Source: Escherichia phage vB_EcoS-613R10. Taken from it: a stretch of 38,680 nt of DNA. Both the position numbers and the translations under genes were made by a program. Positions within the stretch are counted from its first letter, which is position 1, and every line of letters starts with the position of its first letter. Under the pieces are notes generated by a model. It was not told where the DNA came from. It worked only from the letters and a program-made list of their open reading frames with translations, and did no database searches. This document shows positions 1,618-20,791 of this stretch, one piece after another. Location: sequence record ON470590. One strand, written 5' to 3'.

Positions 1618-1806
1618 TCACGAGGACTGAAGTTTCTCGCAATTAAAATTTATCAGTTTTACTTTCTGCTCTCTGGAAACGCCTGCTTCTTTTTTACCTG
1701 AGAGCATTTTTTCGCATTCTGATTTCGTTAGTTTAGATTTTGAATATCTTGTCCAGTTAGTAGGAGTGCCACCTTCCTTTTCAATAGTGGCGGTAATTTT
1801 ATACAT
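1618..1806 (-). CDS. ydaC: Small Rac protein YdaC-like
   Basis: 62 aa from ATG at 1806 preceded by GGAGGTG; the start overlaps the 3' end of the ralR frame. The longer 86 aa version in the ORF track is probably an over-extension. Confidence 0.55.
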   Translation of the reverse strand: MYKITATIEKEGGTPTNWTRYSKSKLTKSECEKMLSGKKEAGVSREQKVKLINFNCEKLQSS

Positions 1807-1843
1807 GAACACCTCCATTATTATTTCCAGTGGTTCGTTTATT

Positions 1844-1993
1844 TCATCGTTCGAGTGCTTCTTTTTCACTTCCACCATAACCGGTTCGGGATTCGCATCC
1901 GTTACACTTCGCTCGGTAATATCCTGAAATGGCTTTCACCGTTACTGATGGACAACCACAAAATGGACATGGTTTAACATTGTCATATCTCAT
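1844..1993 (-). CDS. ralR: RalR/Lar restriction-alleviation toxin homolog, truncated by an in-frame TGA
   Basis: Translation MRYDNVKPCPFCGCPSVTVKAISGYYRAKCNGCESRTGYGGSEKEALER then TGA; 15 further in-frame sense codons (NKRTTGNNNGGVHV) run to TAA at 1799. Confidence 0.6.
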   Translation of the reverse strand: MRYDNVKPCPFCGCPSVTVKAISGYYRAKCNGCESRTGYGGSEKEALER

Positions 1994-2048
1994 AATTTTT
2001 CTCATAAAAATATTTCAAGTTGGCGGTGCATTACACCGCCAGGCTGAA

Positions 2049-2858
2049 TTATTCCTCTGAATTATCGATTACACTGTATTCCCCGGTTAATACAGAGGAA
2101 TCTGCAGGATCGATTGTCAGTGGTTCCTTTTCATCCATTGATACTGCACGCTGGATCTCAATTGATACGGGCAGATATTTGAACAGGCGACGAATAGCCG
2201 TTTTCTTTGCCATTTCTTCCCAGTGAGTTACCCACGGCCCGTTATTACCAGCTTTACTCTGGCTGCGCACCAGCTCAATCTGTTTGCGCGTCATAACTTC
2301 AAACTGAGTACCTCCGTCTTTCAGTCTTGCGACAGCATAGACGTGGGTAACAGGGGCATCTTCGTTTTCTCCTGGGCGGTGTATTAACTTTTCATCAAGG
2401 CCAAATTCGAAATTAAACTCGTCACCTTCACGGACAACACGGGCTGACAAGCTGGCGATTTGACCTGAACGGCGAGCCAGATCAATCATGCCGCGATAGC
2501 CAATGATTAGCTGAACGTTTTTTTTACCGCTCTTTTCGTTTTTATTACCAAAAGGCAGTAAATATGCATGACCGAGGGCGCTACCGGGCTCAAGTCCGAG
2601 CTGTGAACACTGTACGATTGCACTGACAAAACTCATAGTGTCACAGTTTCCTAACGCCGGAACTTTACGAATTTCTGTGGTGGCGATACGGATCATACGT
2701 TCAGCCGTCATATGGCGTGGAAGAGCTGCTGCCAGTTGCTCTTTCATTGATGGCTGGTTAATAAAACTAATCACGTCGTTATTTTTAATTGCTGCTGGTG
2801 CACGGTTTCCCTGAGTTTTTTGCAGATCGGCTTTTGCGATTGGTGGTTGCTTAGTCAT
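2049..2858 (-). CDS. recT: Recombinase RecT (single-strand annealing protein)
   Basis: 269 aa from internal ATG ([23 protein letters not shown]...); sequence recognised as E. coli RecT. Confidence 0.96.
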
Positions 2859-5451
2859 TTGCATATTCCTTAGCCCAGCGGGGCAGTGATAACGTCTTAA
2901 TAGCTGGCCATTCATCGGTATTGAGGCAGTCAGCCAGGGTTCGCAGATTGCGGTGATATTCCAGCTGACCTGCCAGTTTTGCTTCTTCGCCCATCATGAA
3001 AATTTCAACCGGATAACGTCCGCATTCAATAGTTGTGCTGGCAACCAGAAAAACGAAAGTTGGCTGCACTCCAAACTGTGCTTCATAACCGTCACTGTAG
3101 AATGCATCCTGAACGTGATAGCGGTAGTCGTAATAAGCGGTTTTGAATCGTTGAATATCCGCCGTAGTTTTCACGTCCATGATCCAGTGAAATTCAGGGA
3201 TAATTTTGTCCGGACGGCACCGACACAAAATTGCTGTTTCAGGATCTTCCCAGTAAATTGATGATTCAGCGTGTCCGGCGCTTTCAACAAGCCATTGCCC
3301 CAGCGGCAAAGCCATAACGCTCTGATACATGAGTTCAATTTTCCGGCCTTCTTCGGCAGTGATAACCGTTTTTCCTGTGCTTGCGCATTCCCTCAGAAAC
3401 GCTTTCTCTTCTTCTTTTCCGGAGTTTGTCCGGCGGTTAAATTCAGGTGCTACGATAAAGCGGTTACTGAATTCTTCCGGCTCAAGTACCCGGCAGTGGA
3501 AAGCGGTTCCTAAATCGAGCGTTTTTGTCTTTGTGGTGTCCACGGGGGCATTTTTACGCCACAAATACAGTGCCGGAGTATCAGCAATGTCATCGAGCTG
3601 AGACTTACTGACACCGGGACCCGCGTGGTAATTCTCATTCGAAATTCCGTAATAAATACCTGGCTCTATGTCTTCTACGATTACGGGATCTGCGACTTCG
3701 CCAGTTTCATCACTGCAATCGCGATGCGGATCGCTGCCAGCATTCTCATTGTGCGGATGTTCAGCGCCTTCCATTTCCTCCGGATCATTTTCCTTAGCTT
3801 CAACCTGACTCTCTTCATCGAATGTTTCCTGGTATGTTGCGTCGCCCATCACCGCACCACAGTCAGGGCAGTTATCCCCGCCAGTCTGGCCGCAGGCATT
3901 GCAGGCTATTTCCGGTTCCTGTTGCACTACTGGCTCAGGTTGATTCATATCCGGGCTGGTTTTTTCCGTTTCTGGCTGGTTCTGGTACACACAATCGCGA
4001 GTCTGGATCCCCTTTACCCATTTCGGATCGTTCGGGTCGCTAATTCCGTCAACAAATTCACCACGTGATGCAGCAAGCAATTTATCGGCATCGACAGGAT
4101 TTTTTGATGGAATGTTTTTCCGGGCTTCATGGAGTTCTGCCCGCAGTTCCTGATATTTCGCATCAACAGAATTTACCTGTGACTGAGCATCCAGCGGCTG
4201 CGTGTCCTGATGATGTTCAGTTGCGTCCGGTTCCATTGTTTCAGCCTCTCCCTGTTCAACTGCCGTTGTTCCAGATGGTTGCGGTTTTTCTTCATCATCC
4301 TGTTTTCCTTCTTCTGTTACTCGCTGCGGCATCGGGGCAGAGGAGCGACCGCAGGCAATATCCACGATTTCCGGATCAGGGTTGGCATGATCGGTTTCAG
4401 TCAGTACTTTGTTCAGATATTCAGTGACGTGCGCGGGGATGACCTCGATCCCAATTGGTGCTTCTTTTACGGACGCAACCACGATGGCGCGGGAATAATC
4501 CAGCCCGCCAGGCATGGTGATGAATTTGTCGCGGAAAACAGAAAAGGGCGGTTTATTTTCAGCGATAATTTCCTCAATGCGTTTAGCGTGTGCCGGATGA
4601 AGGTTATAGATGTCCAGATCCATTGAACGGGCCAGTACGCCAGTGGCTACGTCGCGCGCCAGTGACGTCAGATCGTGTACGAAACCTTCGCCGCGATCGG
4701 TGAGGTTTCCGCCGCCAGCATTAGCACCGGAAGCCGTGCGAGTGATGTGTGAAACACGATTACCCTTCATCCACTCTTTTGTCAGCAGTCCTCGATCGGT
4801 GTAGTCAGCGTTCAGGTATGCTTCGAAAAAAGCAGTTATCAGTCCCAGGTTTGAATTACCAGGATTAGGGAAAACTTTGTCAGTGTCACGAACCAGTTTG
4901 TGGAGTTCGCGAATTTCCAGCGGGTCGAGCAGGCTGGTTTTGTGGGAAACAGCCAGGGCAGTAACAGCCGGTAGTTCTTCAGCCCGAGCAATGTGTAATG
5001 CCTGGAGTCCGTCGCGTGAAACGTGCGTTACCGGTTTTTCGCTGCCGTGTTGAGCAAGCCAACGAATGGGCAGTTCCTGGCCAGAAATTGGGAGTAGCAT
5101 ATTCTCCTCAATCTCAGTCATGTCTTCGCCGTTGACGTTGGTATTGCCTTGATAGTGAGCGTTGTCTGGTGCTGCTCCCGGTTTTAGTTCCCATGTCATG
5201 GAGTCTTTGCTGAGTTGATAGCGTTCACTCCAGGTAAAATCGATCTCACCTTCAGCGGGCAGGTCATTAACGACAGGAAAATTCGTGGCAACAGCTTTAA
5301 AATAGCTGCTCAGTTTTTTACCTGACTTAACGATCAGGTAGTCCAGAGTGGCACAGGTCGATTCAAAATCGTTGCTTGCCCACAGGACGACGTCAGGTTC
5401 ACCGGATGATTTTTTCGCTTTCCGTAACAGGAAGAGTGGTTTTGTGCTCAT
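2851..5451 (-). CDS. recE: Exodeoxyribonuclease VIII RecE
   Basis: 866 aa ORF; recognised as Rac RecE; its stop overlaps the recT start. Confidence 0.96.
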
Positions 5452-13381: not shown

Positions 13382-13903
13382 TGAAAATTCCTCAAGTTGG
13401 AGAGTTCTGGAACATTAAGGCGAGGTGGCAGTAATGCACCATCTGTAATCTTTTGATACTGACGTAATCGGGCCTGATGTGCAACGCCTTGCAAGTATGT
13501 AACTCATTGAAAACGATCATTTTTATCTATTGACATCAAATGGCAAACTGTCATTGTGCGGCTATGGCAAGTGGCAAATGCTTATAAATCATATGGATAT
13601 AAATAGTACAGAAAGAGTTGTTTTCTCTAGGATATGAGTATACGCCCAATGCTGATTGGTTGAATTTTGTTCTTGTTTTAAAGGGTAAGAGTTTAAAGTG
13701 TTGGCAGTGATGTATTGGATAGTTAGAATTGCTGTGGGTGCTTGAGGCTATCTGCCTCGGGCATGAACACCAAAGGTAGATAGAGAAAAGCCCCAGTTAA
13801 CATTACGCGTCCTGCAAGACGTTTAACATTAATCTGAGGCCATATCTATGCGACACATAGAGATTAGCCTCTTACGGACCGAAAGGTCAAGGAGAAGCAG
13901 GCT

Positions 13904-14029
13904 ATGAAGCAGCAAAAGGCGATGTTAATCGCCCTGATCGTCATCTGTTTAACCGTCATAGTGACGGCACTGGTAACGAGGAAAGACCTCTGCGAGGTAC
14001 GAATCCGAACTGGCAGACGGAGGCTCTGA
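13904..14029 (+). pseudogene. hok-family type I toxin, C-terminally divergent/truncated relic
   Basis: Hand-translated MKQQKAMLIALIVICLTVIVTALVTRKDLCEVRIRTGRRRL (41 aa); the first 37 residues match HokD/RelF as recalled, then it diverges and stops early; SD AAGGAGAAG upstream; hok-like leader begins GGTGCTTGAGGCT near 13738. Confidence 0.6.
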
Positions 14030-19196: not shown

Positions 19197-19333
19197 AATC
19201 TTAACTACAATATGATTCATTTTGATGATTGTTTCATAAGGAACAGTGAAGTAAGATCTAAGAGGAGTTAAATTTTATACAGTATAATCATAATATTGCA
19301 GCAAGGTGGTTATAATTGAAAGAATATTTAGAT

Positions 19334-20791
19334 ATGAATACATCTCATGTAAGAGTTGTTACTCATATGTGTGGGTTCCTGGTTTGGCTCTATAGTCTTT
19401 CAATGTTGCCACCAATGGTTGTAGCATTGTTTTATAAAGAAAAAAGCCTGTTCGTTTTCTTTATAACTTTCGTTATATTTTTTTGCATTGGTGGCGGAGC
19501 GTGGTATACAACTAAGAAATCTGGCATTCAATTACGTACCCGTGATGGGTTTATTATAATTGTAATGTTTTGGATTTTGTTTTCTGTTATTAGTGCATTC
19601 CCTTTATGGATTGACTCAGAACTTAATTTAACGTTCATTGATGCTCTGTTTGAAGGGGTTTCTGGAATAACAACAACAGGAGCAACTGTAATTGATGATG
19701 TTAGTTCATTACCTCGGGCATATTTGTACTATCGGTCACAGTTAAATTTTATAGGTGGTTTAGGAGTTATTGTTCTGGCGGTTGCTGTATTGCCATTATT
19801 GGGTATTGGTGGTGCAAAGCTTTATCAGTCAGAAATGCCGGGGCCATTTAAGGATGACAAACTCACTCCCCGCCTGGCCGATACGTCACGGACACTGTGG
19901 ATAACTTATTCTTTATTAGGTATTGCTTGTATTGTCTGTTATAGACTTGCAGGAATGCCTTTGTTTGATGCTATTTGTCACGGGATTTCCACAGTTTCGC
20001 TTGGTGGTTTCTCAACTCATAGCGAGAGTATCGGATATTTTAATAACTATTTGGTTGAGCTGGTGGCTGGTTCTTTTTCCCTGCTATCGGCTTTCAACTT
20101 CACTCTTTGGTATATTGTTATTAGCAGGAAAACGATAAAACCTTTAATCAGAGATATTGAACTTCGTTTCTTTCTGTTAATAGCCTTAGGGGTGATCATT
20201 GTTACCTCTTTCCAGGTCTGGCATATAGGTATGTATGACTTGCATGGAAGTTTTATTCATTCGTTTTTTCTTGCCAGCTCCATGCTCACTGATAATGGTT
20301 TAGCTACGCAGGATTATGCAAGTTGGCCCACGCACACGATAGTGTTTTTGCTGTTGTCAAGTTTCTTTGGGGGATGTATAGGTTCAACTTGTGGTGGAAT
20401 TAAGTCACTTCGATTTCTTATACTTTTCAAACAAAGCAAACACGAGATAAATCAGCTTTCTCATCCCAGAGCGTTGTTGAGTGTAAATGTAGGAGGGAAG
20501 ATAGTTACAGATCGTGTAATGAGGTCTGTATGGAGTTTCTTTTTTCTTTATACTCTCTTCACGGTGTTTTTTATACTGGTGTTAAATGGTATGGGATATG
20601 ATTTTCTTACATCATTTGCAACAGTGGCTGCATGTATTAATAATATGGGATTAGGTTTTGGGGCTACTGCATCGTCATTCGGAGTGCTTAATGACATTGC
20701 AAAATGTTTAATGTGCATAGCTATGATTCTTGGTCGCCTTGAAATTTATCCTGTTATTATATTGTTTTCAGGTTTTTTTTGGCGCTCCTAA
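19334..20791 (+). CDS. trkG: Potassium uptake protein TrkG
   Basis: 485 aa from ATG at 19334 (MNTSHVRVVTHMCGFLVWLYSL...); polytopic membrane protein recognised as Rac TrkG; visibly AT-rich. Confidence 0.95.
   Translation: MNTSHVRVVTHMCGFLVWLYSLSMLPPMVVALFYKEKSLFVFFITFVIFFCIGGGAWYTTKKSGIQLRTRDGFIIIVMFWILFSVISAFPLWIDSELNLTFIDALFEGVSGITTTGATVIDDVSSLPRAYLYYRSQLNFIGGLGVIVLAVAVLPLLGIGGAKLYQSEMPGPFKDDKLTPRLADTSRTLWITYSLLGIACIVCYRLAGMPLFDAICHGISTVSLGGFSTHSESIGYFNNYLVELVAGSFSLLSAFNFTLWYIVISRKTIKPLIRDIELRFFLLIALGVIIVTSFQVWHIGMYDLHGSFIHSFFLASSMLTDNGLATQDYASWPTHTIVFLLLSSFFGGCIGSTCGGIKSLRFLILFKQSKHEINQLSHPRALLSVNVGGKIVTDRVMRSVWSFFFLYTLFTVFFILVLNGMGYDFLTSFATVAACINNMGLGFGATASSFGVLNDIAKCLMCIAMILGRLEIYPVIILFSGFFWRS

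Follow-up and report, generated by a model that had tools for sequence, protein, structure and literature searches.

Relation to known systems

The closest described system is the RalR/RalA type I toxin-antitoxin pair of the Rac prophage, which has been characterised only in E. coli K-12 (Guo et al. 2014, PMC4041452). Its toxin RalR, also known as Lar (UniProt RALR_ECOLI), is composed of 64 amino acids, and its antitoxin RalA is antisense to rcbA in K-12 (PMC4041452). The locus described here lies in a window of 38,680 nucleotides, the whole stretch of DNA analysed, from Escherichia phage vB_EcoS-613R10 (record ON470590). It displays the same synteny (recE-recT-ralR-rcbA/RalA-xisR-intR), and RalA, the 16-nt pairing elements and RalR residues 1-49 are identical to those of K-12. 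The window product differs from K-12 RalR in lacking W50-V64, and with them N51 and K52, on which toxicity depends. In addition, the ralR stop codon does not overlap the rcbA start, rcbA encodes 62 instead of 69 amino acids, and one T fewer is present upstream of ralR.

RalR belongs to the Lar family (PF14354, Lar_restr_allev; TIGR03655, anti_R_Lar), with which the window product shares the CxxC...CxxC zinc ribbon followed by a helix, whereas it lacks the invariant C-terminal W-N-x-R. A further parallel is found in E. coli K-12 itself, where the majority of hok loci appear to be inactive (PMC4041452). As in those loci, the ORF of a type I toxin is probably disabled by a point lesion and the antisense RNA partner is still recognisable. 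However, RalR is a soluble zinc-ribbon DNase with Mg/Ca-dependent activity and Hok a membrane peptide, and the antitoxin of RalR persists within a different gene that is itself apparently constrained. We regard it as very probable that the window harbors an inherited Trp50 nonsense mutation in the ralR of a Rac-like prophage, with a 49-aa toxin that is likely inactive and a retained RalA.

The ralR frame and its premature stop codon

Translation of the minus strand at window positions 2005..1799 reads MRKIMRYDNVKPCPFCGCPSVTVKAISGYYRAKCNGCESRTGYGGSEKEALER*NKRTTGNNNGGVHV*. The truncated ralR (lar) coding sequence occupies 1844..1993 on the minus strand and is composed of 49 codons plus TGA, as identified by its ORF and translation and by Pfam and NCBIfam matches. 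Its annotated start is the ATG at 1993..1991 (minus strand); the product begins with MRYDNVKPC and ends with EKEALER before the TGA. An alternative ATG located upstream, at 2005, would add MRKI. The premature TGA forms codon 50 (1844..1846, minus strand), where K-12, O145:H28 and strain 155 have TGG (Trp). The substitution is located at window position 1844; it converts G into A in the coding strand and C into T in the plus strand, in the context CGA UGA AAU.

Behind the stop lies the orphaned 3' end of ralR (1799..1843, minus strand), containing 14 sense codons, NKRTTGNNNGGVHV, and the original TAA. This TAA closes the old frame at 1801..1799 (minus strand), within codons 2-3 of rcbA/ydaC. 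The orphaned segment also houses the rcbA Shine-Dalgarno sequence GGAGG (1816..1812) and the first rcbA codons. The initial annotation had placed the in-frame TGA at 1844-1846, exactly where translation finds it, and its coordinates, peptide strings and arithmetic of 49 versus 64 amino acids agree with the translation and the ORFs, as does its statement that the frame ends at a TAA overlapping the ydaC start. Its count of 15 orphaned codons holds if the stop is included, but not as sense codons, of which there are 14 before the TAA.

A tblastn search with K-12 RalR detects this single ralR locus (E = 1e-39) and no second ralR/lar copy in the window. The same allele is annotated as a 150-nt ralR CDS in RefSeq NC_013941.1, and as a ralR CDS at 1844..1993 in GenBank ON470614.1. 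The 49-aa form is represented by the RefSeq protein WP_001443846.1, which is named RalR and carries no pseudogene flag, as is also the case in GenBank.

Comparison with K-12 and other alleles

In the alignment of the 461-nt ralR region, the window and K-12 MG1655 are 99.1% identical, with four differences. One is located in a T-run upstream of ralR, where the window has one T fewer, and another in rcbA codon 63, which is TGA in the window and AGA in K-12. Only two base differences fall within the ralR coding region, at codon 49 (AGA to CGA, synonymous) and codon 50 (TGG to TGA). The latter is precisely the nonsense change that the initial annotation had proposed and expected an alignment to K-12 ralR to reveal. 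Its recognition of the downstream codons as the RalR C-terminus is borne out as well, as all 45 of the 45 nt after the TGA are the same as in K-12. The ralR locus matches a known gene base for base and does not resemble it by chance.

Two further alleles clarify how the change occurred. O145:H28 RM12581 has CGA-TGG at codons 49 and 50 and strain 155 has AGA-TGG, and both carry a ralR of 195 nt, annotated as such (64 aa) in RM12581. The change is therefore one G-to-A transition on a CGA background. Besides the nonsense change, the four ralR alleles show 15 synonymous and 2 non-synonymous differences, which indicates that full-length ralR is normally under purifying selection.

The shortened T-run is located in the region of window positions 2007-2012, just upstream of ATGAGAAAAATTATG, and is one T shorter than in K-12 both in the window and in O55:H7. 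It sits in the ralR 5' leader, beside a GC-rich hairpin (GGCGGTG…CACCGCC) that follows recT. A scan of positions 1500-2150 returned zero terminator matches, and promoter-like matches in the same scan are near chance level.

Spread and origin of the TGA allele

Alleles were counted with an exact 66-mer centred on codon 50 among 5,426 complete E. coli genomes, of which about 1,715 to 1,750 contain the locus itself. The combination CGA-TGA at codons 49-50 is present in 310 genomes and CGA-TGG in 123, and AGA-TGA is found in 0. Most of the remaining locus-bearing genomes have two mismatches to the window 66-mer, and show the AGA-TGG pattern of K-12 in the sampled rows. The TGA occurs only on the background with CGA at codon 49, which fits a single origin from the CGA-TGG haplotype; an independent origin on the K-12 (AGA) background was considered and rejected in view of the 0 genomes with AGA-TGA. 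Moreover, the presence of Trp in every aligned relative identifies TGG as the ancestral codon. The TGA allele is derived, sits on one haplotype background and occurs today in many E. coli lineages.

Carriers of CGA-TGA include O157:H7 strains Sakai, EDL933, PA20 and 86-24, O55:H7 strains CB9615 and RM12579, as well as O26:H11 11368, O111:H- 11128 and O103 RM8385, together with non-STEC clinical and wastewater isolates. The whole 461-nt ralR region is 100% identical in many E. coli chromosomes, including that of O55:H7 CB9615. In a large protein collection, the exact 49-aa protein is found on at least 1,000 contigs, under names such as RalR and Lar family. The TGA allele is ordinary, natural and already catalogued in public annotation. 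Among the titles and abstracts listed for papers with both ralR and O157, none deals with a truncated ralR, and PMC4041452, PMC4632033 and PMC7232551 are silent on it too. In the Sakai record NC_002695.2, positions 1923357-1923422 correspond to window 1814-1879; the sole feature given there is 'prophage Sp10' and no ralR CDS is listed, unlike in PGAP-annotated genomes, which list it.

The RalA antitoxin and its pairing sites

RalA is located at 1622..1800 on the plus strand, antisense to rcbA, and its 3' end abuts the old ralR TAA. The 179-nt RNA matches Rfam RF02694 with 225.1 bits (gathering score 170) over model positions 1-179 of 179, and all 179 nt are the same as in K-12, the alignment columns being invariant.

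The 16-nt RalA pairing site in ralR, as defined in PMC4041452, reads AAGTGAAAAAGAAGCA and is found unchanged at 1856..1871 on the minus strand. It covers codons 41-46 and lies 9 nt upstream of the premature stop. Its counterpart within RalA, TGCTTCTTTTTTACCT, is located at 1684..1699 on the plus strand, corresponding to RalA nt 63-78. The two 16-nt elements are complementary with 2 mismatches, as published, and the position of the RalA element agrees with the previously reported mutants T63C and G64C (PMC4041452). With RalA and the 16-nt ralR target both intact, the locus is best interpreted as a toxin gene that has been disarmed next to an antitoxin that has been retained. The persistence of RalA is probably due to its position antisense inside rcbA, a gene that itself looks to be under purifying selection.

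The overlapping gene rcbA

The rcbA/ydaC ORF (DUF1187) occupies 1618..1806 on the minus strand, with its ATG at 1806..1804, and encodes 62 amino acids matching Pfam PF06688 and NCBIfam NF007283 (138.7 bits). The old ralR frame overlaps rcbA by 8 nt, as in K-12, whereas the premature ralR stop is separated from the rcbA ATG by a gap of 37 nt and no longer overlaps it. rcbA possesses a strong Shine-Dalgarno sequence of its own (GGAGG, five nt ahead of its ATG), so that the early ralR stop does not necessarily impair its translation.

Across codons 1-62 of rcbA, the four alleles show 11 synonymous versus 4 non-synonymous differences. Together with the ralR differences, this pattern is consistent with protein-level constraint on both genes in other lineages. 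Judged from these substitutions and from the DUF1187 and NF007283 matches, rcbA resembles a translated gene. In the earlier report, YdaC protein was undetected and ydaC was judged not to be protein-coding (PMC4041452).

The rcbA stop codon is TGA (1618-1620), giving 62 amino acids in the window, in O145:H28 and in strain 155, whereas K-12 has AGA at this position and reads on to 69 amino acids. A truncation of rcbA in the window was rejected, as O145:H28 and strain 155 also have the 62-aa length and K-12 alone deviates; by this comparison, the K-12 rcbA looks like a stop-loss variant. The variable base, 1620, precedes the mapped 5' end of RalA (1622) by 2 nt, and the variation could touch the ralA promoter or start site.

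Fusion proteins of RalR and RcbA occur naturally at related loci, represented by P0012 (67 aa) and P0015 (96 aa), with junctions such as …GGSEKEA|GVSREQKVKL…. In P0012 the junction is located at the short direct repeat AAAAAGAAGCA, which is common to the RalA-target site of ralR and its copy in rcbA. The fusions likely result from repeat-mediated deletion of the ralR 3' end and most of RalA.

Conservation of the lost C-terminus

A profile search of 1.84 billion representative proteins (50% identity clusters) identified 3,607 relatives at E <= 0.001, and conservation was counted in 200 aligned Lar domains from the best 145 of them. W50 is found in 192 of 192 aligned domains (8 gaps), N51 in 187 of 191 and R53 in 167 of 184, on par with the zinc cysteines C9, C12, C30 and C33 (191 of 191 for C9, 193 of 196 for C30 and 195 of 196 for C33), although the counts are somewhat biased upward because the query profile itself contains the W-N-x-R motif. 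In a 79-sequence alignment, W50, N51 and R53 likewise form invariant columns, and the orthologues of Salmonella (64 aa) and Citrobacter (61 aa) keep ...RWN(K/R)R....

The 49-aa product retains the four-cysteine zinc ribbon (C9, C12, C30, C33), which is invariant across the Lar family, but lacks the W-N-x-R at the end of the helix, whose codons sit behind the TGA. It scores 39 bits against Pfam PF14354 (cut-off 28.6) over profile positions 2-52 of 58, and 126.9 bits against NF007260, the NCBIfam equivalog of RalR (cut-off 113), over positions 1-49 of 64. The repaired 64-aa sequence reaches 166 bits with the latter. Whereas a full-length RalR has 64 amino acids and spans the whole NF007260 profile, the window product stops at codon 50. 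As both scores nevertheless exceed their cut-offs, annotation pipelines name the product RalR without comment. Other rare lesions affect the same C-terminal segment: the database protein P0002 carries W50S, and P0005 has a frameshift after residue 54.

Consequence for the toxin

An AlphaFold model of a close 64-aa RalR (P0004), calculated with the 79-sequence alignment, has a mean pLDDT of 78. It contains a zinc-ribbon hairpin (strands 17-22 and 25-30), a sole helix at residues 43-52 and a tail of low confidence. In this predicted fold, the stop at codon 50 cuts inside the helix, removing its last turn with W-N-K-R together with the tail. No sequence match in the PDB provides a solved structure of the Lar family. 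A Foldseek search with the model returned only generic zinc-ribbon resemblances (eIF2-beta, Elf1/ELOF1 and Pol III C11), none at E <= 0.001, and the model adds nothing on the catalytic mechanism.

Mutants obtained by Guo et al. through error-prone PCR indicate that changes at residues 14, 37, 39, 49, 51 and 52 lower RalR toxicity, and a purified residue-52 mutant (K52Q in the text, K52G in the plasmid table) shows no DNA cleavage (PMC4041452). These results concern missense changes in a RalR that was N-terminally tagged and over-expressed. Of these residues, the 49-aa product still contains C14, T37, Y39 and R49, with N51 and K52 left untranslated. The invariance of W-N-x-R and the mutagenesis at 49, 51 and 52 together suggest that the 49-aa RalR is most likely inactive or a strongly attenuated toxin. 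Any Lar-type restriction-alleviation activity of the full protein is probably also lost.

Carriers of the allele in O157:H7, O55:H7, O26, O111, O103 and other lineages are probably without active RalR and still make RalA. Phenotypes ascribed to RalR/RalA in K-12, for instance fosfomycin tolerance and the DNA damage seen when RalA is lost, should not be transferred to TGA carriers. A caveat also applies to annotation: with a score above the NCBIfam equivalog cut-off, the 49-aa product receives the name of the full toxin, and its truncation is unflagged. The locus provides one more case of a chromosomal type I toxin that is disarmed while its RNA partner persists. A nonsense mutation spread through lineages in a prophage toxin gene is unsurprising, and the practical value of the observation is modest.

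Alternative readings of the interrupted gene

The initial annotation had offered a sequencing error as an alternative to a nonsense change. An error of sequencing or assembly in the record, with TGG as the true codon, is favoured only by the prior that single-base errors happen. It is excluded by the recurrence of the same allele in 310 independently sequenced complete genomes (Sakai, EDL933, CB9615, 11368 and 11128 among them), on at least 1,000 contigs and in two GenBank phage records, so that its probability is practically nil. The same negligible weight is given to a recoding of the UGA as selenocysteine, or to 49 amino acids being the native length and the K-12 protein an extension by stop loss. 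For recoding, a UGA codon is indeed present, but the fold of 1850..1780 (minus strand) has -8.3 kcal/mol with z = -0.25 versus shuffles, and the 27 nt after the stop are unpaired. No SECIS-like or read-through-stimulating structure is found in this fold 3' of the UGA, where a hairpin would have to follow directly, and the family column is Trp, never Cys or Sec; the lack of structure after the UGA and the Trp in all relatives exclude selenocysteine. A native 49-aa form could draw on the short 49-aa database entries. However, Salmonella, Citrobacter and about 190 distant relatives continue through codon 50 with W-N-x-R, and the TGA allele forms a subset of the CGA haplotype; the family alignment excludes this length as native. 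The initial annotation would have taken reference RalR proteins ending at the same position as evidence against its claim. WP_001443846.1 formally is such a reference, yet what it records is the same allele, and it is no separate native form.

Read-through of the stop codon, the other alternative raised in the initial annotation, finds no positive support in the sequence. Among the stop codons of E. coli, UGA is the leakiest, with tRNA-Trp as its usual near-cognate reader. A leaky UGA read at a low rate by this tRNA would yield authentic 64-aa RalR, making the allele a dose-attenuated toxin and not a null. EHEC would then possess a translationally throttled DNase toxin whose dose goes up when RF2 termination weakens, and the allele would have spread through selection for attenuation. 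Misreading as Trp would restore the wild-type residue, and downstream of it all 14 codons and the TAA are preserved. This preservation says little, however, since the Shine-Dalgarno sequence and start of rcbA also constrain the downstream codons. Moreover, the predicted fold contains no stimulatory element behind the stop (z = -0.25), weaker stop contexts than UGA-A are known, and a basal read-through of a fraction of a percent is unlikely to matter for a weakly expressed, RalA-repressed mRNA. A trace of full-length RalR may arise from the leaky UGA, but such a throttled toxin, and selection for it in EHEC, are both very improbable. Less improbable, though still unlikely, is a 49-aa protein that is truncated but functional, its zinc-ribbon core being enough for restriction alleviation, DNA binding or partial DNase activity, and kept because it is useful. 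All four cysteines and residues 1-49 are the same as in K-12, the Pfam and NCBIfam cut-offs are passed, and the allele is widespread in EHEC and other lineages with a 461-nt region free of extra lesions. Against these points, W-N-x-R is as invariant across the family as the zinc ligands, missense changes at 49, 51 and 52 already lower toxicity, the residue-52 mutant is without DNase activity, and the stop cuts the sole predicted helix. The lack of decay is equally expected for a recent mutation hitch-hiking on a mobile prophage. With hundreds of genomes carrying the allele and the 461-nt region not further decayed, a residual or altered function is possible; we nevertheless favour an inherited nonsense mutation that leaves the toxin inactive or strongly attenuated.

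Prophage setting and a second toxin locus

The locus is a ralR/ralA type I toxin-antitoxin system situated at the left end of a lambdoid prophage that is Rac-like and of the CP-933R/Sp10 type. It is flanked by intR (66-1301) and xisR/ydaQ (1303-1518) at one side and by recT (2049-2858) and recE (2851-5451) at the other, all on the minus strand. The resulting order intR-xisR-rcbA/RalA-ralR-recT-recE is the genomic context of RalR. The window 66-mer across codon 50 is the same in EDL933 and in the Sakai prophage Sp10, and over its first 6 kb the window is 100% identical to the Escherichia phage records ON470614.1 (vB_EcoS-666R9) and ON470616.1 (vB_EcoS-673R7).

These two records (38,709 bp and 37,802 bp, respectively) are about the window's length and are presented as 'complete phage genome'. 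ON470614.1 runs from intR into the tail-tip genes, where its end cuts the gene for tail tip assembly protein I. Both records give the impression of prophage excerpts cut off at their right end, not of complete phage genomes. In ON470614.1 coordinates, trkG is located between the lysis and terminase genes (19290-20765).

A second type I toxin-antitoxin locus is found at window 13736-14029 on the plus strand. It is composed of sok (13736-13906, plus-strand locus; Rfam RF01794, 101.5 bits) and a hok-like ORF (13904-14029, plus strand). The ORF is shortened at its C-terminus and encodes only 41 amino acids, reading …CEVRIRTG followed by RRRL*, and matches Pfam HOK_GEF at positions 1-34 of 42. Hok proteins have 50-51 amino acids. 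The +2 frame of the hok-like ORF continues with QTEA…, which suggests a 1-nt frameshift relative to a Hok of that length. Judged from its reading frames, the second toxin of the same prophage may also be disabled.
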